Notes: generated by a model not told the origin, from the letters alone. DNA of 47,418 bases from Planctomycetota bacterium (GCA_016190155.1 JACPRB010000095.1:1-47418); one strand, 5' to 3'; numbered from the stretch's first letter, positions 7,977 to 45,317 are shown. Numbers and translations: made by a program.

Positions 7977-9644
7977 ATGTCGGAGAGAACGGAGAGAGAA
8001 ACCCGGGGCGGAACCGAACCGTCCTCGGACAGGGTGCGCCGCGCCCGCGTGTTCCTGCTGCTGGTGACGGCCGCCTTCCTGGGACTCTCCGTCCGGCTCT
8101 TCGCCGTTCAGGTGAAGGACCACGACGCCCTTCGCGCGCGGCGAGAGAAGCAGCGCCTGGGCCTCGTGGACGTGCGCTCCCCGCGCGGCGCCATTCGGGA
8201 CGCGCGCGGCGAGATCCTCGCGGTCTCCGTGCCCGTTTCGTCGATCTATGCCGTCCCCGCCCAGATCGCGGATCCGGCGGCCCTCGGTCGCGCGCTGGGC
8301 TTCGATGTCGCGTCCAAGCTGAAGCCGGGCCGCGAGTTCGTGTGGCTCAAGCGCCGCGCCACGGAGGAAGACGTCGCGCGCGTCGCGGCATGGCCCGGCG
8401 TCGGGGTGCGCACCGAGCACCTGCGGCGCTTTCCGCACGGCTCGGTCCTCGCCCATGTGCTCGGCATGACGAACGTCGACGACCAGGGCCTTGAGGGCCT
8501 CGAGCGCGTCCTGGAGCCCGTGCTGGCCGGAGAGAGCGAGCGCGGCGCGATCGTGGTCGACGGCCGGCGCGGGAAGCTCTCGTATCCGGAGTCCGAATTC
8601 GGCGCGGCGGACGTGGAGCTGACGATACCGCTCGCCTTCCAATACGTCGTCGAGGAGGCCTTGGATGCCGCCGTGGAACGCTTCCACCCGAAGTGGGCGG
8701 CCGTGGTGGCGATGGATCCGCGCACGGGCGCCGTTCTCGCCCTGGCCAACCGCCCCGCATTCGATCCGAACGCCCCGATCACCGACCCGAAGGCGCATCA
8801 GAACATGGCGATCATCGCGCCCTACGAGCCGGGCTCCACGCTCAAGCCGTTTCTCATCGCGGCGGCGCTCGAGGAGAAGCTCCTCACGCCGAAAACGACG
8901 CTCTTCTGCGAGAACGGGGAATGGAAGCACGGGTCGCGGAGGCTGCACGACCACGAGTCCTACGGCACGCTCACCGTCAAGGACATCATCGCCAAGTCGA
9001 GCAACGTCGGCGCCGCCAAGATCGGCGCGCTCGTGCTGGGCCGGGCGCGGATGAAGAAATGGGTGGAGGCGTTCGGCTTCGGCGAGAAGACCGGCGTCGA
9101 GTTCCCGCTGGAACACCCGGGAAGCGTCGCCCCGCGGGGGTGGAACGAATTCACGCTGACGTCGATTCCCATCGGCCATGAGATCGCGGTCACGATGTTG
9201 CAGCTGGCGCGGGCCATGTCGGCGATCGTCAACGGGGGACGCCTCGTGCGTCCGTACGTCGTGCGCCGCCTGGTATCGCCGGGCGGCGACGAGCTGTGGG
9301 CGGCGCGCCTCGTCGAGGAACGCATGGTCCTGTCGCCGCGGGTGTGCGATCAGATGCGCGAGATCCTGGTCGAGGTGGTCAAGAACGGAACCGGCAAGAA
9401 CGCCGCCGTCGAAGGCGTGCTCGTGGGGGGGAAGACGGGCACGACCCAGAAGGTCGATCCGGCGACGGGGCGATACACGAGCCAGCGGCACATCGCTTCC
9501 TTCGTGGGCTTCGCGCCCGCGGAGGACCCGCGCGTGTGCGTGGCCGTCGTGCTGGACGAGCCGCAGGGGGCGTATTACGGCGGGACCGTGGCCGCGCCGG
9601 TGTTCGCCGAGATCGTGAGGAGGGGACTGCCGCACTTGAAGTGA
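7977..9644 (+). CDS. ftsI: Class B penicillin-binding protein (FtsI/PBP3-like)
   Basis: N-terminal TM, RGAIRDARG, EPGSTLK (SxxK), SSN, KTGT. Confidence 0.93.
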   Translation: MSERTERETRGGTEPSSDRVRRARVFLLLVTAAFLGLSVRLFAVQVKDHDALRARREKQRLGLVDVRSPRGAIRDARGEILAVSVPVSSIYAVPAQIADPAALGRALGFDVASKLKPGREFVWLKRRATEEDVARVAAWPGVGVRTEHLRRFPHGSVLAHVLGMTNVDDQGLEGLERVLEPVLAGESERGAIVVDGRRGKLSYPESEFGAADVELTIPLAFQYVVEEALDAAVERFHPKWAAVVAMDPRTGAVLALANRPAFDPNAPITDPKAHQNMAIIAPYEPGSTLKPFLIAAALEEKLLTPKTTLFCENGEWKHGSRRLHDHESYGTLTVKDIIAKSSNVGAAKIGALVLGRARMKKWVEAFGFGEKTGVEFPLEHPGSVAPRGWNEFTLTSIPIGHEIAVTMLQLARAMSAIVNGGRLVRPYVVRRLVSPGGDELWAARLVEERMVLSPRVCDQMREILVEVVKNGTGKNAAVEGVLVGGKTGTTQKVDPATGRYTSQRHIASFVGFAPAEDPRVCVAVVLDEPQGAYYGGTVAAPVFAEIVRRGLPHLK

Positions 9645-9771
9645 GTCCGCCGGGACAGGAGAGAGGGGGAAACGCATGCCGAGGGATCCGCGCCAATCGC
9701 AATTCAGTCCGCTTCGAGAGATCTACCTGGACACGTCGCCGGTGCACTATCGGCGCAGAAGGGAGGACGTC

Positions 9772-11244
9772 ATGGCCGTGCCGCTGAGCGTCGTTGTGGA
9801 AGGCATCGCGGGCGAGCGCCACGCGTTCCGTGAGGTGGAGATCCGCGGCGTGACCTGCGACTCTCGCCAGGTCCAGGAGGGCTTCCTCTTCGTGGCCATC
9901 CCGGGCGACAAGGACGACGGCCGCCGCTTCATGCATGACGCCGTGCACCGGGGTGCCGCCGCCGTGGTGGCGCAGAAGCCGCTTGAGGAGCGGGCGGACG
10001 TGCCGATGCTGCTGGTGCGCGACGCGCGGGCGGCCCTGGCGGACGCGGCGGGACGATTCTACGGGAGCCCGACGCGGAAGCTCAACGTCGTCGGCGTCAC
10101 CGGCACGAAGGGGAAAAGCACCACGACGTACCTCTCGCGGGCGATCCATGAGGCCGCCGGGGAGCGGGTGGGGCTCCTGGGGACGATTCAGTACGCGTTG
10201 GGTCAGCGCGTGCAGGCGGCGCCCATGACGACTCCACCCGCGGATGAGCTGCAGCGGTACTTCGCGGACATGGTGGCGGCCGGGTGCAAGACGGCGGTGA
10301 TGGAAGTCTCCTCGCACGCGCTGGCGCAGCAGCGGGCGCGCGCCGTCCGATTCGCCGCCGGCATCTTCACGAACTTCGCCCACGATCACCTCGACTATCA
10401 CAAGACGAAGGCGGAGTATCGCGCCGCCAAGGCGCGGCTCTTCGCGCAGCTGCCGGACCATGCGATCGCGGCGCTCAATGCGGACGATGCGTCGTACGGA
10501 TATTTCGCGCGGCGGACGAAGGCGCGCGTGGTGGGCTACGGCTTGGATCCGAAGCTCGAGGCGCACGCGGAGATCGAGAGGATCACGTTCAGCGGAACTC
10601 GGCTGCGCCTGACGCTGGGAACGGAGGCGGTCTCGCTCCGTTCGCGGCTCGTCGGTCGACACAATGTGTACAACATCCTGGCGGCCTCGGCGGCCGCGTG
10701 GGGCATGGGCTACGACCTCGAGCACATCAAGGCCGGCATCGAGGGCATGACGGCCGTGCCCGGCCGGCTGGAGCCGGTGGACGCGGGCCAGGACTTCGCC
10801 GTCTTCGTCGATTACGCGCACACGGAGGATTCGCTGCGCAACGTCCTGAGCGCGCTGCGGCCGCTCACGCCCGGCCGCCTCATCGCGGTCTTCGGGTGCG
10901 GGGGCGATCGCGATCGGGCCAAGCGTCCGAAGATGGGCGCGGTGGCCGAGGAGCTCGCGGATTTCTTCGTCCTCACCAGCGACAACCCGCGCACCGAGGA
11001 TCCCGTGGAGATCATTCGGCAGATCGAGATCGGCACGCAGCGCTCGTCGAAGCACGTGACGGAGCCGGATCGTTACGCGGCGATTCGCCTGGCGATCTCG
11101 ATGGCGCGCAAGGACGACACGATCCTCATCGCGGGCAAGGGGCACGAAACGGTCCAGATCATCGGCCCGGAGACGCGGCCGTTCGACGATCGCGCGGTGG
11201 CGCGGGAGATTCTCGGAGAAACCGTGAGGACGAGACATGATTAA
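9772..11244 (+). CDS. murE: UDP-MurNAc-dipeptide--meso-DAP ligase MurE (alternative start 9676)
   Basis: GVTGTKGKSTT, MEVSSH, DYAHT, FGCGGDRD, SDNPR (DAP-type), AGKGHE; GGAGG before ATG 9772. Confidence 0.96.
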   Translation: MAVPLSVVVEGIAGERHAFREVEIRGVTCDSRQVQEGFLFVAIPGDKDDGRRFMHDAVHRGAAAVVAQKPLEERADVPMLLVRDARAALADAAGRFYGSPTRKLNVVGVTGTKGKSTTTYLSRAIHEAAGERVGLLGTIQYALGQRVQAAPMTTPPADELQRYFADMVAAGCKTAVMEVSSHALAQQRARAVRFAAGIFTNFAHDHLDYHKTKAEYRAAKARLFAQLPDHAIAALNADDASYGYFARRTKARVVGYGLDPKLEAHAEIERITFSGTRLRLTLGTEAVSLRSRLVGRHNVYNILAASAAAWGMGYDLEHIKAGIEGMTAVPGRLEPVDAGQDFAVFVDYAHTEDSLRNVLSALRPLTPGRLIAVFGCGGDRDRAKRPKMGAVAEELADFFVLTSDNPRTEDPVEIIRQIEIGTQRSSKHVTEPDRYAAIRLAISMARKDDTILIAGKGHETVQIIGPETRPFDDRAVAREILGETVRTRHD

Positions 11245-18302: not shown

Positions 18303-19565
18303 CTAAGGCGATGGCGCGGCCGGCGGAGGTTCGGGGGCGGGGGCTTGCGTGGAATCGCCCGGTCGGAACAGCTCTCCCAGCCGTTCCAGGATGACCTCAC
18401 GCGTGAACGGCTTGACGATGTAGGCGCGGGCGCCGCTGCCGAGGGCGAGCTGCGCCGTCTCGCGGCTGGCGTCCGTGGAGAGGACGATGATTGGGGCGGG
18501 CGTGTTTTCGGAGAGCCACGTGCAGAACTGGAAGCCGTCGCTGGTGCTGATGCCGATGTCGAGGATCACGCAATCCAGTTTGCGGCCCTCTCCGATGACG
18601 GCCAGGGCTTGGCCGGCCACTTCCTCGATGACGTCGAAGCCTCCCTCGCGCAGGATGGCGGCCAGGATGCTGCGATACTTGAGCATCTCGCCGAGCAGGA
18701 GGATAGTGCGTCGGCCCGAAGCGCCCGGGGCGAAGGCCGGCGCGGTGGGAGCGGGTTGAAGCGCGGCGGGGGCGCCGGCGATCGGGAGTTTGACCTTCGT
18801 GGTCTCGGCGCGCAAGCTGACGGTCGTTGCGCTCTCGCGGTCGAAGATGCGCACGTACCCCTTGGTGGCCAGCAAGTACATCGTCCGCAGCGCCTCGAAC
18901 CTGGGATAGAGCGAGCGGCGGATGACCTCCTCGATCGAATAGCGCCCCGTGATTTGCGAGTAGACGGCGAGGGCCAAATTGGGATCGTCCCCGGCCGTGG
19001 CGGCATCGAAGGGACGCGTGGTCTTCATGGCGATCATCTTCTCGCTTCGGATGACCTTCATGATCTGCTGGATCTCGTCGGCGCGTCGCGCGGCCTCCAG
19101 CATGATCGTGGTGGGGTTGGCGTCCAGAATGGCCTCCGAGAAGGGGGAGTCCGATTTGACGGACGGAGCGCCTTCCACGAATTCGAAGCAGGCGTCGGTC
19201 CACGTGAACAAGTCGTAGATCTCCTCTTCGACCTGCTCGCGCAGCGCGCGGTCGATGTCCTTCTTGGATACGAGCCCGAGTTTGCCGACGATCTCTCCCA
19301 ACTTCTTTCCCGTGCGCTTCTGCTCTTCGAGGTACTGGTCCAGCTGTGGACGGGTGATCTTCTTGGTGCGGATCAGGATTTCGCCCAGGGAGCTCGTCCG
19401 GCGGCTGGTCGTCATGAGGAGTCGTATTCCCGTGGGGCAGAGGTAGATCGCCTTCTTGTGGTCTCCCTGGGAGATCGTCAGGACGCCCTCACGCGCGTTC
19501 TGGCTGAGGAATTGAAGCAGATCGGCGATGCTCAGGACGCCGACGTCTCCTTGCAGTTTACCCAT
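18303..19565 (-). CDS. DUF4388-like domain plus MshEN-like repeats plus C-terminal receiver domain
   Basis: LQGDV..LSIADLLQFL....EGVL; SLGEIL/KLGEIV repeats; EAARRADE; REC with ILD, LS and KPF. Confidence 0.8.
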   Translation of the reverse strand: MGKLQGDVGVLSIADLLQFLSQNAREGVLTISQGDHKKAIYLCPTGIRLLMTTSRRTSSLGEILIRTKKITRPQLDQYLEEQKRTGKKLGEIVGKLGLVSKKDIDRALREQVEEEIYDLFTWTDACFEFVEGAPSVKSDSPFSEAILDANPTTIMLEAARRADEIQQIMKVIRSEKMIAMKTTRPFDAATAGDDPNLALAVYSQITGRYSIEEVIRRSLYPRFEALRTMYLLATKGYVRIFDRESATTVSLRAETTKVKLPIAGAPAALQPAPTAPAFAPGASGRRTILLLGEMLKYRSILAAILREGGFDVIEEVAGQALAVIGEGRKLDCVILDIGISTSDGFQFCTWLSENTPAPIIVLSTDASRETAQLALGSGARAYIVKPFTREVILERLGELFRPGDSTQAPAPEPPPAAPSP

Positions 19566-27371: not shown

Positions 27372-28694
27372 CTACAAAGTCAGCGTGAAATCGTCCACCA
27401 GCGCCCCGGGCACCAGGCGGCTTTGCGTGGATCGCTGATAGTAGGTCCCCGGGTCGAGGATCAGATCCTGTTCCCTCGTCAGCCCCACGAGATTCTCCCC
27501 CAGCATCCGGAAGAGCGTCTCGTCGAATCGCATCACGTTCAGCGGCGCCTTGATCCGCGCGCCTTCCACCCAGAACGTGGCGAAGCGCGTCATGCCGGTC
27601 GTCCGGCAATTGCTCCGGTCTGAATAGTTGAGGTACCAGACGTTGCCCACGTAGATTCCCGTCTCCAACGTACGGAGCACTCTTTCCATGGGCAGATCTC
27701 CCGGCGCCACCTCCAGCGACTCCGGGATCTCCATGAGCGAGGCCCCGTTCGTGGGCACGCCGTACTCCATCGCCGAGCGGGGAGAGACGAGGCAATCGCG
27801 ATGGGCTCCGGCCTCGATCAGCGTCACGCGATCAGGACGAATGAACCCCGCCTCCTGGAAGTTGGCCGCGATTCCGGCCCCGGTGTGTTCCGCGATGTTC
27901 ACCGACGGATGCATGCGCACTTCGCCTTCGATCATCTTCAGCAGCGGCGTCTGCTTTGTCCGGTGGGACTTCAGCCCGAAGCCGCCCGAGTTGAGGATGC
28001 CGACGATGTCATAGAGGGCCGCGGGGGCGAGATAGACCCGGTACCGGCCGGGATGGACGGTGCGCGCAGGATGCGAGAGCGCCTCCAGCTGTTCCTTTGC
28101 CCACGAAACCTTGCGGTCGAACTCCTGGGGCTTCCACTCGAAGCCGGCGTAGGTCGTCTTCACCGCCTTGTCGAGCTGATGGTAGAAGCTCCAATCGAAG
28201 TTGAAGGTGTGGGTGCCGTACCAATTCCGCTGGCCGAACGAATTGGCGAATCCTTTGTGGATGCCGCCGGAGGCGTAGATGCCGACCAGGTCCCGCCCTT
28301 GGCCCGCCTTGCGGATTTCCTCCACCGCGGCCGCGGCGTCCGGCAGGCGGCTCGAGCCGGTGCGCTCCGTCGATCGCACCTCGGTGGCATAGAGAAGATG
28401 GGGATCCTCCGGGAGGTGGCTCCTTAGCTCTCGCAGGCTCTTGATCAGCCGGGCGATCCGCGGCCGGTCGGTCTCCAGATCCCCGGAGAGCGATCCACAG
28501 CCGGACGCGTGCCGCTTCCCGGAAATCAGGTCGATCTCCAGCATCCGCTGGGTGACGTGCCCCGCCTGGCGGATCTCGTTGCGATTGAAGCGCACGAAGT
28601 CCGAGTCCTCCGCGCCGAAATCGGAGGTGAACGCCTCGTCCGCATGAAGATGGGACTGGATTTCGTCGGCGATCGTGTTGAAGTATTCCCGCAT
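27372..28694 (-). CDS. pmbA: TldE/PmbA family protein
   Basis: Follows tldD; FVRFN, PGRYRVYL.P, TGMTR, MRFDE; lacks the HExxGH motif. Confidence 0.82.
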   Translation of the reverse strand: MREYFNTIADEIQSHLHADEAFTSDFGAEDSDFVRFNRNEIRQAGHVTQRMLEIDLISGKRHASGCGSLSGDLETDRPRIARLIKSLRELRSHLPEDPHLLYATEVRSTERTGSSRLPDAAAAVEEIRKAGQGRDLVGIYASGGIHKGFANSFGQRNWYGTHTFNFDWSFYHQLDKAVKTTYAGFEWKPQEFDRKVSWAKEQLEALSHPARTVHPGRYRVYLAPAALYDIVGILNSGGFGLKSHRTKQTPLLKMIEGEVRMHPSVNIAEHTGAGIAANFQEAGFIRPDRVTLIEAGAHRDCLVSPRSAMEYGVPTNGASLMEIPESLEVAPGDLPMERVLRTLETGIYVGNVWYLNYSDRSNCRTTGMTRFATFWVEGARIKAPLNVMRFDETLFRMLGENLVGLTREQDLILDPGTYYQRSTQSRLVPGALVDDFTLTL

Positions 28695-28695
28695 G

Positions 28696-30129
28696 CTAGG
28701 CTCCGCCAAACACGTCGACATTGCCGAAGACGCACGCCGGGGAGGCATGACCCACGCGGATCGACTGGTTCGGTTCGCCCTTGCCGCAGAAGGGCGTCCC
28801 CAGCACCTGCAGGCCCGCGGCGTCGCCCACCTGTTTGAGGCTCCGCCAGAAGGTGGCGGAGACGCCTCGGTAATTGGGCTTGCGGACCACGCCTTTGAGC
28901 TCCCCGTCCTCGATCATCCGCCCCCACTCGCATCCGAACTGAAACTTGTTGCGGGAGTCGTCGATCGACCAGGAGCAATTGGTCTCCATGGCGATGCCGC
29001 GCTCGATTCCGCGCACCATCTCGTCGAACGTGGACTCGCCCGGCTCCAGGTTGAGGTTCGCCATCCGATCGATGGGCGGGCGGTTCCAGCCCGCCGCCCG
29101 GGAGTTGGCGACGCCAGGAATGCCCGCTCGCGCCTGCGAGATCGCCCCGCCGAGCGGCCGCAGCAGGATGCCGTTGCGGATGATGTACTCCTTCTTCGCG
29201 GGTGTCCCGTCGTCGTCGAAGGCGTAGGTCGCGAGTTGATTGGGCCGCGTCGGGTCGAACGTGACGTTGAGGAGCTCGGTCCCGTAGCGATACGCCCCGA
29301 ACATGTCGAGCGTGACGAAGCTCGTGCCCGCGTAGTTTCGTTCGTCTCCGAGAATCCGGTCGAGCTCCAGCGGGTGCCCGATCGATTCGTGGATCTGGAG
29401 GATCATCTGATCGGGCGCGAGCAGCACCTCCATCTTTCCGGTGGGGCAGTCCGGGGCCGCCAGGAGCTGGAGCGCTTCGGATGAGATCCGGGGGGCCGCC
29501 TCGTGGAATCCCAGATCGTCCAGGACCTCCAGGCCGCCCTGCCGCGCGCAGCCGATGCCGCCGAACGAGCGCGTCTGCGTCTCCGTCCCCTCGTTCGCCG
29601 TGGCGGTCATGTTGGGCACGAGAAAGTGGAAGCGCTGATAGACTCGCCCTCCGTCGGACGTCAGAAGGAGCGTCTCCAGCTCCGTATGCCAGAGGCGTGC
29701 GTCCCAGTCGACGATCCGGTCGTCCGCTTTGAGTTGCTCGCACACCTCTTGAAGGAGGGCGATCTTGTCGCCGAGCGAGACCGAATCCCAAGGCTTCGCG
29801 GGACGGGACGTGTATTCGCCCTTCGGCGAGCGCGGGTGGACCCGGGTGAAGTCCAGCACGCTCTTCCCGGCCGTGCGATGCGCCCACTCGAGAGCCTTGT
29901 CGGCGGCGCGCTTCAGCCCGGCGCGCGTCAGGTCGCAGGTTCCGGCGTAACCCAGTCCGCCTCCGTCGACCACGGTGATCATCGCGCCGACATCTTCCGA
30001 CGTGGAGACCGGTTCCACGATGTTCTGGCGGACGGCGACTTGCTCGTTGCGCCCGCGAACGTATCGGAGGGAAGCGTAGTCCGCCTCGGGCGCGGCCTCC
30101 CGGAAAAGTCTCTCGACGGCTTCCAGCAT
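28696..30129 (-). CDS. tldD: TldD metalloprotease
   Basis: HESIGHPLELDR, FDDDG, PIDRMANL, CGKGEP; AGGAGG before ATG 30129. Confidence 0.92.
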   Translation of the reverse strand: MLEAVERLFREAAPEADYASLRYVRGRNEQVAVRQNIVEPVSTSEDVGAMITVVDGGGLGYAGTCDLTRAGLKRAADKALEWAHRTAGKSVLDFTRVHPRSPKGEYTSRPAKPWDSVSLGDKIALLQEVCEQLKADDRIVDWDARLWHTELETLLLTSDGGRVYQRFHFLVPNMTATANEGTETQTRSFGGIGCARQGGLEVLDDLGFHEAAPRISSEALQLLAAPDCPTGKMEVLLAPDQMILQIHESIGHPLELDRILGDERNYAGTSFVTLDMFGAYRYGTELLNVTFDPTRPNQLATYAFDDDGTPAKKEYIIRNGILLRPLGGAISQARAGIPGVANSRAAGWNRPPIDRMANLNLEPGESTFDEMVRGIERGIAMETNCSWSIDDSRNKFQFGCEWGRMIEDGELKGVVRKPNYRGVSATFWRSLKQVGDAAGLQVLGTPFCGKGEPNQSIRVGHASPACVFGNVDVFGGA

Positions 30130-30166
30130 GATGGCCTCCTGGAGACCGCACAGCCTACCAGAAAAA

Positions 30167-30196
30167 CCGTTCGACCGTTCACCTGTTCGTCCGTTG
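30167..30196. repeat. Octamer-period GTTC repeat (reverse of the 18264 family)
   Basis: GTTC at 30169, 30177 and 30185, GTTG at 30193. Confidence 0.6.
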
Positions 30197-30219
30197 TGTG
30201 CATTCGCAGGTGATTCTGC

Positions 30220-30248
30220 TTGACCCGAGCCGCTTGAGTCACTAAACT
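30220..30248 (+). promoter_or_regulatory. Sigma70-type promoter of the Lys-rich protein gene
   Basis: TTGACC, 17 nt, TAAACT; ATG 9 nt downstream, no SD. Confidence 0.6.
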
Positions 30249-30257
30249 CTGCAGCCC

Positions 30258-30638
30258 ATGACCGACAAGCAGGAAGCACTCAAGAAGATCATCGCCGAGT
30301 TCAAGGAGAAGGTCTCCAAGCAGACGGCGGCCTCGAAGGAACCTAAGAACGACCCCGAACTGCGCGAGCTTCGCAAGCAGCTCAAGCGAGCACAGCGGCG
30401 CCTGGCCAAGATCACCAAGTACTCGCTCGAAGAGAGCGTCAAGAGGACGCAGAAGCGCTCCGACATTATTTCCAAGCTCCTCTCGGACATGACCAAGGGC
30501 GCGAAGAAAGTGCAGGCTGATCCTTACGTGCACTCGCTGCGCAAGAAGTCGAAGTCGCTCAACAAGCGCCTCAAGAAGCTCAATCGGTTGATCGAGAAGC
30601 AGAAGAAGGCGGCCCCGCCCGCCCCACAGACCTCATAA
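30258..30638 (+). CDS. Highly basic 126-aa helical protein with internal duplication
   Basis: 37/126 residues K or R by hand count; strong codon bias; two DP-x4-LRK repeats. Confidence 0.85.
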   Translation: MTDKQEALKKIIAEFKEKVSKQTAASKEPKNDPELRELRKQLKRAQRRLAKITKYSLEESVKRTQKRSDIISKLLSDMTKGAKKVQADPYVHSLRKKSKSLNKRLKKLNRLIEKQKKAAPPAPQTS

Positions 30639-36914: not shown

Positions 36915-38597
36915 ATGGAATGTCCGCGTTGCCGCAAGGAAGTGCCTGAGCCGGTGTTGCAGCGTTACGGGGGCGTTTGTCCGCCGTGTCTGGCCGGTTT
37001 CGCGGGGGAGGGCGCGGGGGCGCCGACGGAGCTTGAGGTGCCGACGGTTCAGCCGGGGATGCGCTTTCACGGGTTTGAGATCGTGCGCCGGTTGGGTCAG
37101 GGCGGGATGGGGACGGTGTACGAGGCGCGGCAGGTGGGGCTGGAGCGGTCGGTGGCGCTGAAGATCCTGTCGGCGAAGCTGGCGCAGGACGAGCAATTCG
37201 CGCAGCGGTTCGCGCGGGAGGCGAAGGCGATGGCGTCGCTGAACCACCCGAACATCGTGCAGGTGTTCGATTTCGGGAAGGAGGACGGGCGGTACTTCCT
37301 GGCGATGGAGTATGTGGAGGGGGTGTCGCTGCGGGGCTTGATGGCGGGGAATCGTTTGCGGCCTGAGGAGGCGCTGCGGATCGTGCCGCAGATCTGCGAG
37401 GCGCTGGAGTACGCGCACGGGCATGGGGTGGTGCACCGGGACATCAAGCCGGAGAACATCTTGGTGGGGCGGGACGGGCGGGTGAAGATCGCGGACTTCG
37501 GGCTGGCGAAGATGGTGATGGAGGAAGGGGGGACGCTGACGCGGACGAGCGTGGCGATGGGGACGCCGCAGTACATGGCGCCGGAGCAGTACGAGCGGAT
37601 GAAGGACGTGGACCATCGGGCGGACATCTATTCGTTGGGGGTGGTGTTCTACGAGATGCTGACGGGGGAGGTTCCGGCGGGGCACTTTCAGCCGCCGTCG
37701 CGGAAGGTGGACGTGGATGCGCGGCTGGACGGAATCGTGCTCAAGGCGATGGCGAGGGAGCCGGAGAAGCGATATCAGCGGGCGGTGGAAGTGAGGACGG
37801 ACATGGAGCTGATGGCGTCGGGACGCGGGGTCGTAAATGAGGTACAACCAGCGCCGGCGCGGACTTCCAAGGTTGCGGTGTGGAGTCTGGCGTGTTGGGG
37901 CATTGCGGTGGCGGCGCTGGTTGCCGGAGCGGTAGGGGATGCTGAAGGGGTGAGATGGATTGCCTCGCTGGGAAAGACGGGTGCGATCCTCGCTTTCTTG
38001 GCCTCGCCGATTCTGGCCATTGCCGCGCTGATTCGGATTCATCTGAGCCACGGACGGCTGGTCGGAAGGGCGTATGCCGTGACGGCGCTTGCGTTCCTCC
38101 TCCTCCCTTGCGCCGCAATAGCTGTCTTGTCTTATTCTACAGGTATGCCTGTAGAAGAGGTTAGTCAGCGCCGGTCCGTGCCCGCGCGACGGCCGTTGAA
38201 ACTTGATCTTGATGATGTGGTGTCGGACCTGAAGCTCACGCACGGAAGCCTCTTCGCGGACGGGCAGGGCTGGGTTGTCACGCGAGAGCACTCCGAGATC
38301 CGTGAAATCCGGGCGGAATGGGATCGTCTCTTGGGCCGCCAGACCTTCACGTCCGATAACTACACGGGGGCATGGCGCGGCGTCCTTCAAACGGGAGGCA
38401 CGATCATCATCATCTTGGAGATGAACGGGGGAGCGGGATCAGGCCGCTCCCTGAAGGAAACGGCGGGCCCAGGGTCTTTTCGGTGTCTTGAATCAGATAG
38501 TTTCCACGCACTCATTCGTCAGACGCGCGACGACGAGGTCACCTCCGAAGAGGCGCGCCGGGTGGCGGATCTTCTTCGGGGGAAGTTCAAGCCGTGA
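36915..38597 (+). CDS. Membrane Hanks-type Ser/Thr protein kinase with N-terminal Zn ribbon
   Basis: CPRC..CPPC; LGQGGMG, VALK, HRDIKPEN, DFG, GTPQYMAPE; three hydrophobic segments then C-terminal domain. Confidence 0.93.
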   Translation: MECPRCRKEVPEPVLQRYGGVCPPCLAGFAGEGAGAPTELEVPTVQPGMRFHGFEIVRRLGQGGMGTVYEARQVGLERSVALKILSAKLAQDEQFAQRFAREAKAMASLNHPNIVQVFDFGKEDGRYFLAMEYVEGVSLRGLMAGNRLRPEEALRIVPQICEALEYAHGHGVVHRDIKPENILVGRDGRVKIADFGLAKMVMEEGGTLTRTSVAMGTPQYMAPEQYERMKDVDHRADIYSLGVVFYEMLTGEVPAGHFQPPSRKVDVDARLDGIVLKAMAREPEKRYQRAVEVRTDMELMASGRGVVNEVQPAPARTSKVAVWSLACWGIAVAALVAGAVGDAEGVRWIASLGKTGAILAFLASPILAIAALIRIHLSHGRLVGRAYAVTALAFLLLPCAAIAVLSYSTGMPVEEVSQRRSVPARRPLKLDLDDVVSDLKLTHGSLFADGQGWVVTREHSEIREIRAEWDRLLGRQTFTSDNYTGAWRGVLQTGGTIIIILEMNGGAGSGRSLKETAGPGSFRCLESDSFHALIRQTRDDEVTSEEARRVADLLRGKFKP

Positions 38598-38835
38598 CCC
38601 CCGCGACCTTCAGGACCGCGCACAATCGCCTTCCGGCGGGCGTGGAGTGCAGGCGCTGCGCCGCTTCCGCCAACGCCCGCCCGCGCTCGACATCCCCCGC
38701 TCGAAGGGCCTCCCGCGCCCGGCGGCGCAGGTCGTGGCCGGCCACGGCGAGCGTCATCAACGGCCCCAGGTCCGCGCCGCAGCGCGGGCACTCGCGCGAC
38801 TGCCGGAACCGCGCCCGACACACCGGACAGCTCAT
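38587..38835 (-). CDS. Small Zn-finger plus TPR-like helical hairpin protein (82 aa)
   Basis: MSCPVC...CPRCGADL; TGATG overlap with the Hsp70 stop. Confidence 0.75.
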   Translation of the reverse strand: MSCPVCRARFRQSRECPRCGADLGPLMTLAVAGHDLRRRAREALRAGDVERGRALAEAAQRLHSTPAGRRLCAVLKVAGVTA

Positions 38836-40667
38836 CACTTCCCCTCCACGAAGAAGAGCAACTCCTTGAGTTGGTCCACCGCTTTGGAGAGCGTCTCGGG
38901 GTCGCGGCGGGAGATCGCGATCGCGATCCGCTCCGTGAGCCCGAGGGCGTCCTCGCGGTCCTCTTCGTGCATGCCCTCCAGGACGCGGTGCGAGCGCTCG
39001 ACCAGACGCTGCGCGTCCCCCGAGACCCGATCCCATTCGAGACCAGGGGCCGCGGCCGGCGCGGGCGCGATCTCCACGTGGTCCTGCGGGACTTCTTTGG
39101 GCTCGTCCCCGACGACGGAGAACATCCCTTCCAGATCTTCGGCGCGAGCGGTGTAGAGCGAACGGAGCTTCTCGCGCGCGGCCTCCAGCTCCTTCTCGCT
39201 CCTGGGCCGGAGGGCGCCCGTGATCTTGATTCCCTTCGACAGGCCAGTGCGCTTCTCCGTCGCCGTGACGCCCAGAATCCCGTCCACGTCCAGGCTCATG
39301 CGGACCACGACGTCGCTGGGCTCCGGTGTCGGCGTCAGGCCTTCGACGCGAAACGTTCCGATGCGCGCGTTCTTGAGCGCGTCCGGGTCCTCGCCCTGGA
39401 AGATCTCCACCTCGACGTCCGTCTGGTACGGCGCGGCCGTGTAGTACGTCTCCGCGCGGGTCACCGGCAGGGGCGTGTTTCGCCGGATGATCGGCCGGTA
39501 GCAGTAGGGATAGGGGACCTCTTCCTTCTCGCCCAGGTAGGAGGGCCCGAAGGAATAAGGCGAGACATCGACCAGGACGCGGTCGATCTCGTGCCCCGCC
39601 AGCCGCGAGGCCAGCACGCCCGCGCCCAGCGCCACGCACAGATCCGGATGGACCTCCTGCCTCGGAGCGAGACCCGTGCGCTCCTCGAGAAGGCGCGAGA
39701 CGAGCGGCGTGCGCGTCGAGCCCCCTACCAGGAAGATTGCGTCCAGATCGGAGGGCTTCTTGCCCGCGTCGGCCAGCGCTTTGGATACGCTTTCGAGGGT
39801 CGATTCGACGAGGTGTCGAATCAGGTTCTCGTATTCTTCGCGCGTAATCTCGACCTCGAGGTGCAGCGGCTTGCCTTCGTGCACGACGAGGGCCTCCTCG
39901 CGCACGACCGTGTACGGCTCGAAGCTGAGGCGCTTCTTGGCCTCCTCCGCCGCCCACCACAGTCGCTAGTTCGCCACCCTGTGGCCTTGCCGGAGGTCGA
40001 TGCCGTGGCGGTTCTGGATCGCCGCCAGGAGGCGCTCCAGCAGGAGCTGGTCGAAGTCGTCGCCGCCGAGTTGCGTGTTGCCGTGGCTGGCCAGCACCTC
40101 CGTGACGTCCTTCTCCGTCGTGACGATCGAGACGTCGAAGGTCCCGCCGCCGAGGTCGTAGATCATGAGCGTGCGCCGTCGGCCGTCGCCGTGGCCGTAC
40201 GCGAGGCTCGCGGCCGTCGGCTCGTTGAAGATGCGCACGACGTCGAGACCGGCCAGCGCGCCGGCCTCGCGCGTCGCGTTGCGCTGGGCGTCCGAGAAGT
40301 AGGCGGGCACGGTGATGACGGCCTTGCGCACCGGGCGGCCGAGCGAGCGCGTGCCCCACTCCGCCAGCTCGCGCAGGATGAGCGCGGACAGCTCCTGGGG
40401 GGTGAACGTCCGATCGGCCAGCCGGATCGTCTCGGGGCTCCCCATCTTGCGCTTGACGCTGCGCACGGTGCGCTCCGGGTAGAGGATCTGCTGGTTGCGG
40501 GCGGACTCGCCGATCAGCAGCGCCCCGCTGGGTGAGATTCCCACGCAGGAGGGGAGCATGCGTGTGGCGCCCGGGCCGAGGACCTGGACGCGCCCTTCCA
40601 CGAAGGCGGCGATCTCCGAATTGGTCGTGCCCAGGTCGATGCCTACGATGAGGTCGTCACTCACCAT
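38835..40667 (-). pseudogene. Hsp70-family chaperone (610 codons) interrupted by one in-frame TAG at 39966-39968
   Basis: GIDLGTTNS, TVPAYF, DLGGGTFD, then ...RVAN*RLWWAAEEAKKRLS..., VGGSTR.P, linker VLVDV; both halves in the same frame. Confidence 0.85.
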
Positions 40668-41385
40668 GGTCGTTCTCCGTTTGTCCGCGGGCCACCTTCA
40701 CTTCTGCCGGACGAACCGCATCTCCGTTCCACTCGTACCCGGCGCGATAGACTTCCAGCACGGTTCCGTCCGGAACATCGGGACGGACTTCCATCTCGAC
40801 CGCCCTCATTCGATGCGGATCGAAGAGGAGTCCGGCGCACGCGATCTCGTGGACGTCGTTGCGCTCGAGGGCCTCGTTGAGGCGAACGAGCGTCAATTCG
40901 TAGCCTTTGACCAGCGCCTCGGTTGCGTCGTGGGGCCGGCGGAGGAGCCGCTCCCAGAGGCCGGTCTTCTTGGCGACGTGCGCTCGCGCGGACGAGAGCC
41001 CTCGCTGGAGGCGGTCGCGCAGATCGAGGAGCAGGTCGAGGATGTCTTGCCAAGCGGCGCGCTTGATTTCCGCGGCGCGCGTCGCGCGCAGCTCGGACAG
41101 GATCTGCGGCTGGGCCTCCAGGGCGGCCTTCACGCCGGGTCCCAGCGTGTCGCTCAGTTCCTTGAACGCCCTTCCCTGGAGCTTGATTTCCTGGGTCAGC
41201 GCCGTCGCGGCCGCCCAGAGGGAATAAAGATCGCGCGGGTCTTCCTCGGGCGTCGGCTTGCCTTCGGCGAAGAGCTCGGGGGCGATTCCCGAGGGCGGCT
41301 CTTCCTGGGCGAGGGCTTCATCGAGCCAGCGCGTAAAGCGTTCCAGGATTCGTTCCCGGACGGCGGATTGATCGACGTCGCTCAT
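40657..41385 (-). CDS. grpE: GrpE-like nucleotide exchange factor
   Basis: LLDLRDRL coiled coil, FDPHRMRAV, GTVLEVYRAGY....VRPAEVKV; ATGA-coupled. Confidence 0.8.
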   Translation of the reverse strand: MSDVDQSAVRERILERFTRWLDEALAQEEPPSGIAPELFAEGKPTPEEDPRDLYSLWAAATALTQEIKLQGRAFKELSDTLGPGVKAALEAQPQILSELRATRAAEIKRAAWQDILDLLLDLRDRLQRGLSSARAHVAKKTGLWERLLRRPHDATEALVKGYELTLVRLNEALERNDVHEIACAGLLFDPHRMRAVEMEVRPDVPDGTVLEVYRAGYEWNGDAVRPAEVKVARGQTENDHGE

Positions 41386-41675
41386 TTCTTCCTCAGGACC
41401 TCCAGCCACGGTTCCGGCCCGACGAACAGGCGGGCCGTCTTGATGCCTTCCAGCAGGGAGGGTAGGGGGCGCAGTGGATCCTCCGCCAGGAACGCCAGTC
41501 GCGCGCGCTTACGGGGATCACGCAGCGTCTCGTAGGCGTCGCGGATGCGTTCGAACTTGAGGGGGGAGCGCTCCGGGGGATGCTCCTTGACCTTGCGCAG
41601 GTAGGCCGCGCGGATCTCTTCCTCGCCGGCCTCGGCGGACACTCCCAGGATGGCGCGCGGATCTTCGTGAGTCAT
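41382..41675 (-). CDS. Small J-domain protein with HPP in place of HPD
   Basis: DPRAILGV...EEIRAAY...KEHPPERSP..FERIRDAYETLRDP..R. Confidence 0.85.
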   Translation of the reverse strand: MTHEDPRAILGVSAEAGEEEIRAAYLRKVKEHPPERSPLKFERIRDAYETLRDPRKRARLAFLAEDPLRPLPSLLEGIKTARLFVGPEPWLEVLRKK

Positions 41676-41677
41676 CG

Positions 41678-44245
41678 CTACCTCCCGAATCCGAAGAGGA
41701 TCCTTCCTATTTCTCGAAACAGCTTGGGATCCGTTCTCTCGAGCTCCCGCGGGTCCGGCAGGCCTCCGTATTTCTCGAGTATCTCCGCGAGGACGGGCAG
41801 GAGCTCGGGGTGCATCCCCGGAGGGAGCGGCAGGTCCTCTTCGTCTCCGTCGTCCTCCTCGTCGAAGTCGTCGGGAGCCGGGTAGGCGAGGTCGTTCTTC
41901 TCGCGCTCGAGGACGCGATGGGCTTCTTCGAGGGACATAGGGGATGGCTTTTCACCCATCGCCCATGGCGGCAGGATCTCCTCCTCGTCCAGGAGATCCA
42001 TCGCCTCCTCGATCACGGATTCGTCCCGCTGTTGCCGCGCCAGTTCGGCGGCGGCCCGGAGGCACGTGGAATACCGATCGGACGAGGAGAGACATTGCGC
42101 GCGCAGGAGCAGGAAGCGGGCGGCGAGCGGGCCGCCTCGGGCCAATCCGATACCCGAGGTCGCGTAGGCCAGATCCTCGTATTCGTCGTCGAGGGCGGTT
42201 TCCGCCAGCGCGCGCAGCGCCGAGAGGTCGAGCGAGCGGGCTCCGTCCGGGAGGGATTGTTTTAGCGCGGGCACCCATTGCGGGGGGATTTCCACGCAGA
42301 CCTTCAGGTCCGCTACGAGGGCGCACGCTTGGGCGATGCCCTGAACGAGCTTCTCGCCGGGTTCGGGCTTGAGCTCTGGGGGCGCCTTTCCCGCGGCGGC
42401 AAGGCTCTTCAGGAGGACGAACCCGGCGAAGGGATTCTCCAGGCGCGCGTATGTCTCGTCTTGCAAGCGCCGGGTCTCGGTTTGATCGCACCTGAGGGCG
42501 GCGGATACCCATCGCAAGGCGATCGGGAAGGCGGAGCGGCGTCCCTCGCGGGTCGGGGGAAGCGTCTCAAGGGCGTCCGCGTCTTTCTTGATGAGAGAGG
42601 CGTTCCTCTTTTTCACGTGCTGCATGGCCGAAGCGACCATCAGGCGAAGCCGTGCGCGGGCCACCGCGGGATCGAGGGAGTCGATGCGTTCGGCTTGCTC
42701 CAGATAATCGAGCGCCTTCTTGAAGGCGCCGCGCGCCTCCGCGGACTCCATGAGGAACAGGAGCGGGCGAGTATCGGCGGGTGCGGCGGCGTGCCAGGCG
42801 TGGGCCACCTCGTCGGCGGCCTTGCCGTAGCCTTCGGGATTCTTCACGGCCTCCATCCAGGCGTGGAAGAGCTCCGGATCGGCGTCGATCGCGCAGGAGC
42901 GTCTGTAGAGGACATCAGGTGACAAGAAGGCGGGGTCGGGTTTTCCGGGTTTCTCGTTCCCGAGCGCGGCGAGGATCTCCGGCGGCTGATCCGCGTAGTA
43001 ACGCCCGAGGTCCGGAATCTGCTCTCGCGCCTGCTTGAGGAGCGGTTCCGGCATTCGTCCGAGGATCGTGGCCATGTGGCCGTAAAGCGCGGCGAGTTCC
43101 AGGCCGTCCGGCGGGAGCAGTCCTTCGTGAAGGGCGTGTTTGCGGTACTGCTCCCAGTGGAGGCACGCTTCGGCGGGGCTGCCGGCGCGTTCGGCCGCCA
43201 GAGCATAGAGGCGCCAGAAGGACGCGTCCTTGCGCGACGAGCCGCCCATGGCCTCGCGCACCCGGTCGGCGGGGAGATCGGCGATCGCGCCGCGGATCGC
43301 AAGGTGCTGTCGGAGACGGATCAGCAAGTCGGGGACATCCTGATCGCACTGCTCCACCGCGCGTCGAATGGCCTCGAAGATCTTGCCTCGTTTGCCGCTC
43401 TTGAGGGCGGAATCCAGCGACTGCAGGGCGTCGCGCGTGGCCGTTGTCGTTTTCGCGATGCGCGAGAGGAGGCCCGCCGACGGGGTCGTCAACGTCTTGT
43501 CGCTCTTACCCGAGAGCGCGGCGCGAAGAGCCGGAACCAGGCGCGCCGGGACGGAATCGGGATCGATTGCGTCCAGGCACTGCGCGCACGCGTCGTCCTC
43601 GCGCCGGTAGAACAAGGCGATGGCGCGTACGAGCAGCTTCCAAGGGGCGAGCGGGCTGCGCAGGGAGATCTCAGGAAGCGCGATCTCTTCGTCGCGACCG
43701 GGCCCGCGAGTGGCGGCGGTGACCGCTTGCGCCGCGGCGGTTGCAGCTTTCCTCAGCGGATGGTCAGCTGAGAGAGAGGGGCATTGGGCCAGGGCGTACG
43801 GATCCACCAGCTCCCGTCGCAAGGCGCGCTCGATGTGGGCTTTCTGCTCCTCGGGGAGATCAGGTTGGCTGAGGGGACGTACGAGTTCGGCCAGGGTGTC
43901 GTCGCGCTTTTCCGTCGTCGCGTACAGCGTGTCCAGGACCGCGGAGGAGGAGGGGAATCTCTTCGACACGTATTCAAGGAGGGCTTGGGCTTCGAGGGCG
44001 AGGCCGCGTTCGTTCAGGCTCCGGATGCGTGCCACGTACGCCTCAGCCAGCAGCGCTTCGGAGACGCGTATCGGGAGATCCTTGAGGAGCCTCTTGGCGT
44101 GCTCCACGGCGTTCTTGGTTTCTCCTTTCGCGATGAGGGCTCTGATCTCGTCCGCTCGGCGAGCAAAGGCGGAGTCGCTCTGGTCGTTCGAAGGGCGAGT
44201 TCCCGAGGATTGCAGATGTTGCTTGAATGGTTCTTGAGATGACAC
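41678..44245 (-). CDS. Large alpha-helical, TPR-like protein (855 aa) with acidic C-terminal patch
   Basis: A/L/E/R-rich helical composition; TPR-like 'FKKALDYLEQAERIDSLDP'; first gene of the Hsp70 operon. Confidence 0.8.
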   Translation of the reverse strand: MSSQEPFKQHLQSSGTRPSNDQSDSAFARRADEIRALIAKGETKNAVEHAKRLLKDLPIRVSEALLAEAYVARIRSLNERGLALEAQALLEYVSKRFPSSSAVLDTLYATTEKRDDTLAELVRPLSQPDLPEEQKAHIERALRRELVDPYALAQCPSLSADHPLRKAATAAAQAVTAATRGPGRDEEIALPEISLRSPLAPWKLLVRAIALFYRREDDACAQCLDAIDPDSVPARLVPALRAALSGKSDKTLTTPSAGLLSRIAKTTTATRDALQSLDSALKSGKRGKIFEAIRRAVEQCDQDVPDLLIRLRQHLAIRGAIADLPADRVREAMGGSSRKDASFWRLYALAAERAGSPAEACLHWEQYRKHALHEGLLPPDGLELAALYGHMATILGRMPEPLLKQAREQIPDLGRYYADQPPEILAALGNEKPGKPDPAFLSPDVLYRRSCAIDADPELFHAWMEAVKNPEGYGKAADEVAHAWHAAAPADTRPLLFLMESAEARGAFKKALDYLEQAERIDSLDPAVARARLRLMVASAMQHVKKRNASLIKKDADALETLPPTREGRRSAFPIALRWVSAALRCDQTETRRLQDETYARLENPFAGFVLLKSLAAAGKAPPELKPEPGEKLVQGIAQACALVADLKVCVEIPPQWVPALKQSLPDGARSLDLSALRALAETALDDEYEDLAYATSGIGLARGGPLAARFLLLRAQCLSSSDRYSTCLRAAAELARQQRDESVIEEAMDLLDEEEILPPWAMGEKPSPMSLEEAHRVLEREKNDLAYPAPDDFDEEDDGDEEDLPLPPGMHPELLPVLAEILEKYGGLPDPRELERTDPKLFREIGRILFGFGR

Positions 44246-44409
44246 GTTATCCCCATTCTCCTCGATGCGGTAGCGAATCGTAGCGTCGTGAGGGGTTCAG
44301 GGAAAGGGGAATTGCGGTGGGTTCCACGAAGTGCCTTGGGTGCGCACGAATGACGAAGTAGCCGCCGCTGAGATCGCGAAGAAGAACGCTGATGATTCTT
44401 CAAGAAGAC

Positions 44410-44452
44410 GGCTCTGCGTCCTCTCCGAACCCTCTGCCCGCTCTGCGGTTGG
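44410..44452. repeat. GAGGACGCAGAG-family repeat, reverse orientation
   Basis: CTCTGCGTCCTC at 44412-44423 followed by ctctgcccg-ctctgcggtt. Confidence 0.65.
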
Positions 44453-44483
44453 TCTTTCGGAGTGAATCGTGGGATCTACTGCC

Positions 44484-45008
44484 TCATTCTCCCGACGGCG
44501 TTCGGTCCACCTTCTGCGCGAACGAGTCCGGGTCTATGGCGGGATATCGGTAGAGGTTCGGGCGGATCTGCTCGAAGCGCGCCTTCAGCTGAACCGGCTC
44601 GATCAGGCCACGCCGGAGCATCTCGCGGACATCGAGCAGATCACGTTCATGCGCGCGCTCGATCTTGGCCAGGGCCTGGGAATACAAGTCATAGTGATGC
44701 CACTGGACGCGCCCTTCCTGGCAGATGAAGGGGCTTCGGGACTCCCAATCCGGGATCGGCGGGATGAACTGGTCTGGACTGGCCAGTTCGATATTGAGGT
44801 GAAGCGCCTCCTTCAATTCAGGCAGGGCGCGGAACGCTTCGTCACGGTCGGGGACGATCTTGATGTCCACATCGATGGTGGTTTCTCGCCAGCCCATCAG
44901 CACGGCGGTCGCCCCGCCGGTGAGATAGATGCGCGTGTCCGTTCGGACGGCTTTACCCAAACGGCGCATGAACTCCCGAATACGATCGGCCGTGGCTAGC
45001 TCGCGCAT
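44484..45008 (-). CDS. Putative nucleotidyltransferase (DUF6036-like)
   Basis: YLTGGATA...TIDVDI (GG plus DxD), LAKIER...DL.D. Confidence 0.75.
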   Translation of the reverse strand: MRELATADRIREFMRRLGKAVRTDTRIYLTGGATAVLMGWRETTIDVDIKIVPDRDEAFRALPELKEALHLNIELASPDQFIPPIPDWESRSPFICQEGRVQWHHYDLYSQALAKIERAHERDLLDVREMLRRGLIEPVQLKARFEQIRPNLYRYPAIDPDSFAQKVDRTPSGE

Positions 45009-45262
45009 TCGAGGGCTCGTTCAAAGCTGACCAGCCTTCGGAGGAGCGCGTTGTATCGAGCATGCGCGTCGTCCCCGTAGGCGCGCGCCAGCATGAGGTA
45101 GAGCAGGTGGTCGGCTTCCGGGATGGGACGTAGGACGGCCAGACCGGCGCGGCGGAGGCGCGATGCTCCGATCGAGACAAGCAGGGCCTCCGCGGTTTGC
45201 CTGTCATTGGCGAGGTCGTCCAACCCTCGACGCACGAACTCCTCGCCCGGCAGTTCCTTCAT
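44996..45262 (-). CDS. Small helical protein (88 aa), partner of the nucleotidyltransferase
   Basis: MKELPGEE...YNALLRRLVSFERAL; overlaps the next gene; TATAAT 6 nt before ATG. Confidence 0.75.
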   Translation of the reverse strand: MKELPGEEFVRRGLDDLANDRQTAEALLVSIGASRLRRAGLAVLRPIPEADHLLYLMLARAYGDDAHARYNALLRRLVSFERALECAS

Positions 45263-45317
45263 GACGGCATTATAGCGCATGGAAGTACCGAGGTGCGAGT
45301 GGGGGGAGCCTCGATGT

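Follow-up and report, generated by a model that had tools for sequence, protein, structure and literature searches.

The stretch of DNA analysed here, referred to as the window, comprises 47,418 nt of a Planctomycetota bacterium (GCA_016190155.1, JACPRB010000095.1:1-47418). Five open reading frames (ORFs) lie head to tail on its minus strand at 38587-44245 and form a cassette that includes an Hsp70 chaperone gene. The first ORF (41678-44245) encodes an 855-aa helical-repeat protein resembling tetratricopeptide repeat (TPR) proteins. It is followed by the gene of a 97-aa J-like protein (41382-41675; ORF and Pfam DnaJ match), the gene of a GrpE-like nucleotide exchange factor (40657-41385; Pfam GrpE), the Hsp70 gene (38835-40667) and the ORF of an 82-aa zinc-ribbon/hairpin protein (38587-38835). 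The GrpE-like protein has 242 aa when read from its ATG, and an alternative GTG start lies at 41409. The Hsp70 gene comprises 609 sense codons and one internal stop, with Pfam HSP70 matches on both halves. The junctions along the cassette are a 2-nt gap, an ATGA in which the GrpE-like ATG overlaps the stop of the J-like gene, an 11-nt overlap and a TGATG. The GC content of the cassette (0.66-0.69) is the same as that of the window. A first-pass annotation, made from the sequence alone, had described these five ORFs, and its coordinates and junctions were borne out by the ORF calls. Its domain calls held as well: DnaJ, GrpE and HSP70 were recognised by Pfam, and the 82-aa and 855-aa proteins gave weak matches only.

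A search with the 855-aa protein as single query yielded only one weak related locus, and an alignment query was needed. A conserved peptide pattern applied to a species-level genome collection led to 134 confirmed loci, and the analysis continued with the best 80. When these were searched with the five proteins of the window (tblastn), 69 of the 80 contained all five genes in one order and on one strand; an arrangement repeated so often is far beyond chance. The other 11 loci stop 19 to 3104 bases past the first gene because contig ends cut them. The median tblastn identity to the window was highest for Hsp70 (63%), followed by the J-like (59%), zinc-ribbon (54%), GrpE-like (44%) and 855-aa (38%) proteins. 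Neighbouring cassette genes of the homologous loci often overlap by 1 or 4 nt (the starts being longest-ORF guesses), and the zinc-ribbon gene overlaps the Hsp70 stop codon in the window and in most loci. The cassette is a real, conserved five-gene unit across many soil and sediment bacteria. The self-contained module proposed in the first-pass annotation is thus well supported, and the genes beside the Hsp70 are indeed conserved together with it.

By record label, 59 of the 80 loci belong to Acidobacteriota, seven to Thermodesulfobacteriota, six to Planctomycetota and one each to Sumerlaeota and Hydrogenedentota. Four carry no phylum, and two were mapped to Myxococcota, with record titles reading 'Deltaproteobacteria bacterium'. 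One locus (L074) comes from a cultured strain, Edaphobacter aggregans DSM 19364. The cassette has a patchy distribution. The single 855-aa query detected it in none of the 19 genomes of the window's own family and in three of 41 relatives (the window's genome included). An alignment of 23 sequences, used as query, detected it in 11 of 301 sampled genomes of the phylum, again including the window's own; nine of these matched at E<=1e-49.

The Hsp70 of the window does not score as a canonical DnaK. With the Pfam HSP70 model, one half scored 236.5 bits and the other 176.7 bits. The DnaK equivalog NF001413 (253.1 and 188.7 bits on the halves) did not reach its cut-off of 648, and TIGR02350 (253 and 184 bits) did not reach 822.55. 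The window's Hsp70 shares 41% identity with the genome's own DnaK and less with E. coli DnaK (38%), HscA (37%) and HscC (35%). In the alignment, a gap in lobe I (DnaK 76-101) and a gap in lid helix B coincide with gaps of HscC from E. coli. The GrpE-signature loop has the length seen in DnaK, while it is deleted in both HscA and HscC. As aligned, the cassette Hsp70 is a mosaic of HscC-like deletions and a DnaK-like GrpE loop, and the retained loop fits an Hsp70 that has its own GrpE.

Further features are specific to the family. The substrate-binding beta domain has, in its first loop region, an 8-residue insertion with a conserved PYP[HY]C, the lid carries a variable acidic insert, and the C-terminus is a conserved ELLFFVEG in place of the long tail of DnaK. 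The substrate-binding domain is complete. There is no N-terminal extension as in HscA, and isc genes were absent from the window neighbours and from the flank clusters of the 80 loci. GIDLGTTNS, K70, R167, E171, DLGGGTFD and the hydrophobic linker are conserved (ATPase residues and R167 in the usual numbering). Judged by these motifs, the Hsp70 of the cassette looks active.

A tree of 32 Hsp70 rows (quick IQ-TREE run, LG+G4) contained 19 cassette Hsp70s, seven paralogues from five other genomes, two from the window's genome, the DnaK encoded on contig C16 of the same genome, and DnaK, HscA and HscC of E. coli. All 19 cassette Hsp70s formed one clade outside DnaK and HscA, with a support of 100 in the Shimodaira-Hasegawa-like approximate likelihood ratio test (SH-aLRT). 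E. coli DnaK and six canonical DnaKs formed a separate clade (SH-aLRT 98), and DnaK was closer to HscA than to the cassette clade. The cassette clade was placed on the HscC side of the branch that splits off DnaK and HscA (SH-aLRT 98), a placement that involves a single HscC and long branches, for which the program issued a warning. The position apart from canonical DnaK agrees with the specialised Hsp70 that had been proposed. The Hsp70 tree disagreed in part with taxonomy.

The cassette is an extra system beside housekeeping DnaK, GrpE and DnaJ. The canonical DnaK on contig C16 scored 801.6 bits with Pfam HSP70, compared with 375.5 and 48.2 for the cassette gene. Housekeeping GrpE (141.5 bits) and DnaJ are encoded together on contig C302. 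Each of five other cassette-bearing genomes had a canonical DnaK as well, with 531-915 bits as against 365-429 bits for the cassette Hsp70; the lowest DnaK value (531 bits) belongs to a gene in two pieces. The window's genome also encodes a further short Hsp70 on the minus strand of contig C347 (about 8449-10367; open frame of 561 aa), with a weak J-domain match directly downstream (23.6 bits, under the cut-off). This Hsp70 sits on a long branch near HscC in the tree, and the two genes may be a second specialised Hsp70/J pair.

The GrpE-like protein matched Pfam GrpE (PF01025) with 80.4 bits (cut-off 25.8) over profile positions 48-164 of 165, which spans the helical bundle and the beta domain of GrpE. 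All 21 matching NCBIfam GrpE equivalogs remained under their cut-offs, the best with 56.3 bits as against 194.

The 97-aa protein matched Pfam DnaJ (PF00226) with 41.1 bits, above the cut-off of 27.8. No client-binding domains were found by Pfam; the protein consists of a J-domain and a short tail. The atypical J protein noted in the first-pass annotation lacks the His-Pro-Asp (HPD) motif between helices II and III throughout the family. In an alignment of 72 rows (the window and 71 of 76 homologues, five being omitted for length), the loop reads [F/Y/H]-P-P-[D/E]. P33 and P34 were present in 72/72 rows, and position 35 was D in 55 rows and E in 17; the window has Pro-Pro-Glu. A profile alignment places P33 opposite the His of HPE in E. 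coli DjlC. After the J-domain follows a conserved C-terminal extension of about 35 aa, in which R82, G86, P87 and W90 are invariant or nearly so and F84 is found in 64/72 rows. In canonical J-domains, the His of HPD is needed for ATPase stimulation. A large survey of J-proteins, according to the available part of its text, dropped sequences without a full HPD (PMC10410713). The J-like family would consequently lie outside that survey, and such filtering may be why it went unnoticed.

The 82-aa protein starts with a ribbon of the form C-x2-C-x9-C-x2-C, whose cysteines (C3, C6, C16, C19) were invariant in 25/25 rows, followed by a conserved TPR-like helical hairpin. Its zinc-ribbon matches in Pfam were generic and all under cut-off, and a PDB sequence search with the family profile gave nothing informative. 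The zf-DNL family was absent from the Pfam matches of the window protein at E<=0.1 and from the eight families listed for the 25 members at E<=0.01. An identity with Hep1 was dropped on this account.

The sole Pfam match of the 855-aa protein was TPR_14 with 14.7 bits, under the cut-off of 23.5, and NCBIfam gave no match. At least 268 homologues were found at E<=1e-3 among 8000 candidates scored, and the 120 listed had E-values of 1e-139 to 1e-200. The named homologues among those listed are 'hypothetical' save one 'TPR repeat protein', and none has precomputed Pfam domains. At E<=1e-30, a profile of 23 homologues matched 636 representative clusters, a number that rises to 1893 at E<=1e-3. A search of PDB sequences with the family profile brought no informative match. 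By features, the Atlas places one homologue (P0072) next to TPR proteins (scores 0.93-0.96). The 855-aa proteins are a large family without a Pfam domain or annotation. Conservation begins near residue 33, and a start at or near 44245 is therefore preferred over the recorded 809-aa form (P0001). Towards the C-terminus, many homologues carry a C-x-C-x2-C-R motif followed by an acidic run and end in a basic tail or in G-x-L-F; in the window protein, the acidic run is present and the cysteine motif is missing.

From gene content, coupling, conservation and motifs, which were observed directly, as were gene order and clade membership, we infer a private Hsp70 cycle with its own ATPase, exchange factor and J-type partner. 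On this basis, the cassette probably encodes an Hsp70 machine that is self-contained and dedicated to the 855-aa protein, the latter being its client or its adaptor. The five genes would travel as one operon. The Hsp70, which keeps its ATPase residues and interdomain linker, would cycle with the private GrpE as exchange factor. The J-like protein probably uses its J-domain to dock on the Hsp70, and the change from His to Pro in its PP[D/E] loop may insulate the pair from housekeeping DnaK and DnaJ. By analogy with AtcJ, the C-terminal extension probably tethers a further operon product, for which the 855-aa protein is the likeliest candidate. The 855-aa protein would then be either an obligate client undergoing remodelling or an adaptor through which clients are presented. 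Translational coupling links the zinc-ribbon/hairpin protein to the Hsp70, for which it probably serves as an accessory or escort factor.

The closest characterised relative in features, as far as sequences can be compared, is HscC with DjlB and DjlC. In both cases a specialised Hsp70 has dedicated J proteins encoded alongside. HscC shares the deletions in lobe I and in lid helix B, of which the lobe I deletion is also reported from many DnaKs outside proteobacteria in the available passages of PMC8215388. The J-domains of DjlC and the J-like protein could be aligned (hhalign probability 85%) and have an equally short spacing from the motif to the next conserved Phe. Both loci encode helical-repeat proteins, of the Sel1 type in E. 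coli, and the helical-repeat-plus-J arrangement of the hscC locus loosely parallels the cassette. The E. coli K-12 hscC locus (L118) has two copies each of Sel1-repeat (ybeQ/ybeT), DUF1266 (ybeR/ybeU) and J-protein (djlB/djlC) genes.

There are differences as well. HscC is described as missing the GrpE loop and using no exchange factor (PMC8215388, in the portion available), whereas the loop is retained in the cassette Hsp70 and each of the 69 complete loci contains a GrpE gene. The cassette Hsp70s are 600-650 aa long and HscC 550-580 aa, and the 8-residue insertion in the substrate-binding domain is sited differently. The cassette J-like protein is soluble, has 97 aa and carries PP[DE], in contrast to an E. 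coli counterpart of roughly 480 aa that is tail-anchored and carries HPE. The 855-aa family showed no similarity to the remainder of E. coli DjlC or to YbeU (hhalign probability <1%).

Two other systems share parts of the cassette. MxDnaK2 of Myxococcus xanthus (MXAN_6671) is an Hsp70 paralogue co-transcribed with a private GrpE (MXAN_6672) beside a housekeeping set, according to the accessible sections of PMC11019930. Compared by description only, it resembles the cassette in this private Hsp70-GrpE pair. Its operon is described there as bicistronic, and those sections do not report J-like, zinc-ribbon or large helical genes. AtcJ of Shewanella oneidensis has a 21-aa C-terminal extension that binds the operon partner AtcC (PMC6715715, in the passages available). 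It resembles the J-like protein in being short (about 94 aa) with an extended tail, and its operon partner is likewise of unknown fold. The AtcJ-AtcABC system differs in its functional HPD, its use of housekeeping DnaK and the absence of a private Hsp70 and GrpE. The AtcJ model matched the J-like protein weakly (NCBIfam 23.3 bits, cut-off 150), and membership of that family was rejected. That a paralogous system can serve one cellular process is reported for cyanobacterial DnaK1/DnaJ3 in the available part of PMC9239167.

Work on bacterial Hsp70s centres on DnaK, HscA and HscC. Other DnaK derivatives were called unexplored 'dark matter' in a 2026 review (PMC13580251, available in part). The first-pass annotation knew of no characterised system with this make-up. 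Likewise, no description of the cassette was found in full-text literature searches, although supplementary tables outside those searches could list such a neighbourhood. The cassette is apparently an undescribed variant of a dedicated Hsp70 machine. It would add a well-defined Hsp70 system with its own exchange factor, a J-domain with Pro for His, a new zinc-ribbon partner and an unannotated large partner family. A His thought to be essential is replaced by Pro in every J-like member seen. As the cassette occurs in the cultured, non-pathogenic E. aggregans strain, it is directly testable.

Several points weigh against a dedicated machine of this kind. The J-like protein may be regulatory or inert, not activating, because it has no His. 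Neither a catalytic nor a binding domain is recognisable in the 855-aa protein, so that 'client' and 'adaptor' are indistinguishable. Moreover, the physical contacts, the direction in which the machine acts and its physiological role are all inferred from sequence features. A single Hsp70 ORF of >=600 aa was found in 66 of 69 homologous loci, and seven loci were inspected in detail; four of these seven (L016, L042, L078, L079) have frame breaks in the Hsp70 gene. Possibly these four were sequenced by one method that produces indel errors, a guess made because their records share a naming style. Finally, the Hsp70 gene of the window contains a single in-frame TAG at codon 234 (39966-39968, minus strand), with the same frame on either side, which was absent from the first-pass annotation.

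Because of this stop, the local Hsp70 copy may be inactive. If the TAG is real, full-length Hsp70 would no longer be made and the window would contain a dead gene in a decaying module. All 63 aligned homologues have a sense codon at this position (A in 48, S in 10, T in three, N and V in one each), and the nearest relative (L020) has TCG, from which a single C-to-A change yields TAG. However, the TAG is the only lesion. The remaining four cassette genes are intact, and the GC content at third codon positions remains high to either side of the stop (0.95 and 0.87). A sole lesion in such surroundings fits a very recent mutation or a consensus error. Four runs of one study match parts of the stretch exactly, as short contigs with a depth of only 2 to 9; no RNA run was listed for the stretch. 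In none of the four does a contig cross the 74 bases at 39955-40028 that hold the TAG, and exact-match contigs end on both sides. Overall, the chances that the window copy is a dead gene are a little below even. Highly conserved Hsp70 segments near 39955-40028 attract contigs from many other organisms. Recoding of the TAG was considered and dropped because the homologues carry ordinary sense codons there.

The dedicated machine also has to be weighed against an auxiliary chaperone set for general stress, in which the cassette would support broad folding under a condition such as cold, oxidants or desiccation and the 855-aa and zinc-ribbon proteins would be general co-chaperones. TPR proteins commonly serve as Hsp70 co-chaperones, and the substrate-binding domain of the cassette Hsp70 is complete. 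DnaK paralogues are reported from 31.6% of 38 Acidobacteria genomes (PMC11019930, accessible sections). Ruc (Rv0991c), a small four-cysteine zinc-ribbon protein, is described in Hsp70 loci of Planctomycetes, Acidobacteria and others, and in DnaK/DnaJ/GrpE loci such proteins pass clients to DnaK (PMC7448276, in the part available). The zinc-ribbon protein of the cassette is unlike Ruc, however, when the two are compared by the description given there: Ruc has cysteines at 8, 11, 29 and 32 (C-x2-C-x17-C-x2-C) and a disordered hydrophilic tail, in contrast to C3, C6, C16 and C19 and a helical hairpin. An identity of the 82-aa protein with Ruc was dropped for this difference in spacing and tail.

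Regulation did not point to general stress either. The presumed promoter site, the intergenic region upstream of the first gene (44246-44483, minus strand), contained no recognisable elements. CIRCE, HAIR and the sigma-54 consensus were found in none of 70 such upstream regions (the window and 69 loci). Two weak sigma-32-like matches occurred among the 70, neither of them in the window's region. A scan of the whole window gave no sigma-70-like sites, and six terminator-like sites compared with 4.6 expected. In addition, the J-like protein has no client-binding domains, and a narrow task is indicated by the altered substrate-binding loop and by the 855-aa gene, which is co-inherited strictly 1:1. 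A general-stress set is hence unlikely.

A bolder form of the dedicated machine would be an insulated chaperone-gated switch. Its His-less J-domain (Pro-Pro-Asp) would drive only the private Hsp70/GrpE cycle, which would shift the 855-aa protein between a latent and an active state. We consider this quite doubtful. If true, the switch could act as a sensor of stress or infection, the HPD motif would not be universal for productive J-Hsp70 coupling, and the cassette would be a bacterial compositional counterpart of the mitochondrial Hsp70 motor. This import motor has an Hsp70, a GrpE-type factor, an HPD-less J-like protein, a small zinc-finger Hsp70 partner and a large scaffold, which resemble the parts of the cassette. 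Its Pam16 acts as a regulator, not as an activator, and with Pro for His the J-like protein might do likewise. The components of the motor are mtHsp70, Mge1/GrpE, Pam18/Pam16, Tim44 and Tim15/Zim17/Hep1 (abstract of PMC9695410). The likeness is an analogy only: the cassette lacks a zf-DNL match at the thresholds used and a true HPD J partner, and no membrane segment was predicted in its five proteins (top 19-residue hydropathy 1.58).

The first-pass annotation had read the five genes as a private chaperone machine in an accessory region, with a stress or anti-phage role. Its reading stood with regard to the co-conserved genes, the non-DnaK Hsp70, the J protein without HPD and the undescribed make-up. 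The accessory region and the anti-phage role found no such backing. The window neighbours are mostly housekeeping genes; they include IleRS, TGT, a UvrD-type helicase, TldD/PmbA, an M28 peptidase, a Ser/Thr kinase and a multihaem cytochrome. Flanking genes are not common between loci. Clustering of all ORFs of >=70 aa in the window and the 80 loci revealed no widely shared family outside the cassette, the largest flank cluster being present in 6/80 loci.

A second set consisted of the nearest upstream and downstream ORFs of >=110 aa from the 68 loci with both end genes placed (119 proteins). It was a mixture of hydrolases, transporters, SecA, helicases, regulators and unknowns. PADLOC matched 12 of the 119, all generically (helicases, a kinase, HTH, methyltransferases, RidA and a SecA tail), and found no complete defence system among them. 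On the cassette proteins it returned noise, with best E-values of 0.055 and 0.059 on two of the six submitted. The 855-aa protein had no match in plasmid and phage collections.

These results bear on a conflict or anti-phage system in which the Hsp70 would set a threshold or act as a sensor, with the 855-aa protein as sensor or effector, as in GTPase-centred or McrBC-linked Hsp70 systems. The patchy cassette (0/19 genomes of the family, 11/301 of the phylum) and the partial disagreement of the Hsp70 tree with taxonomy would suit such a system. So would the toxin-antitoxin or transposase-type genes among the flanks (10/119: four PIN, two DDE transposases, and one each of Y2 transposase, RES, PemK and PD-(D/E)XK). 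Like the cassette, GAP1-N2 GTPase systems (PMC7159879) and CoCoNuT with its CnuD (PMC11090510) have non-housekeeping Hsp70s in conserved neighbourhoods, and the GAP1-N2 systems are described as having Hsp70 with GrpE and DnaJ or TPR fusions, in the parts of these articles that were available. The same sources and PMC12642450, likewise in part, describe Hsp70 conflict systems as centred on GTPases or McrBC and equipped with nucleases, which are absent from the cassette. By Pfam and NCBIfam, none of its five proteins has a nuclease, protease, GTPase, pore-former or other effector domain. Moreover, the ATPase motifs of conflict-system Hsp70s are often degenerate, whereas those of the cassette Hsp70 are intact. 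With generic flank matches, noise on the cassette itself, no plasmid or phage match and mostly housekeeping neighbours, a defence role for the cassette has no support, and a conflict system is very improbable.

The 'TA-like pair' mentioned in the first-pass annotation corresponds to a DUF6036 nucleotidyltransferase gene (174 aa) and a 94-aa upstream gene with a 13-nt overlap (44484-45280, minus strand). The pair lies within the lowest-GC kilobase of the window (0.605) and is not conserved beside the cassette in other loci. On the other side, a plus-strand gene (36915-38597) runs towards the cassette and shares 11 nt at its 3' end with the end of the zinc-ribbon gene. It encodes a 560-aa Ser/Thr protein kinase with hydrophobic segments and a stretch rich in cysteines at the N-terminus. 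Further away on the minus strand, a DUF4388 protein with a receiver domain (18303-19565) and a TldD/PmbA peptidase pair (27372-30279) are unrelated to the cassette. In one homologous locus (L059), the nearest downstream ORF likewise encodes a protein kinase.

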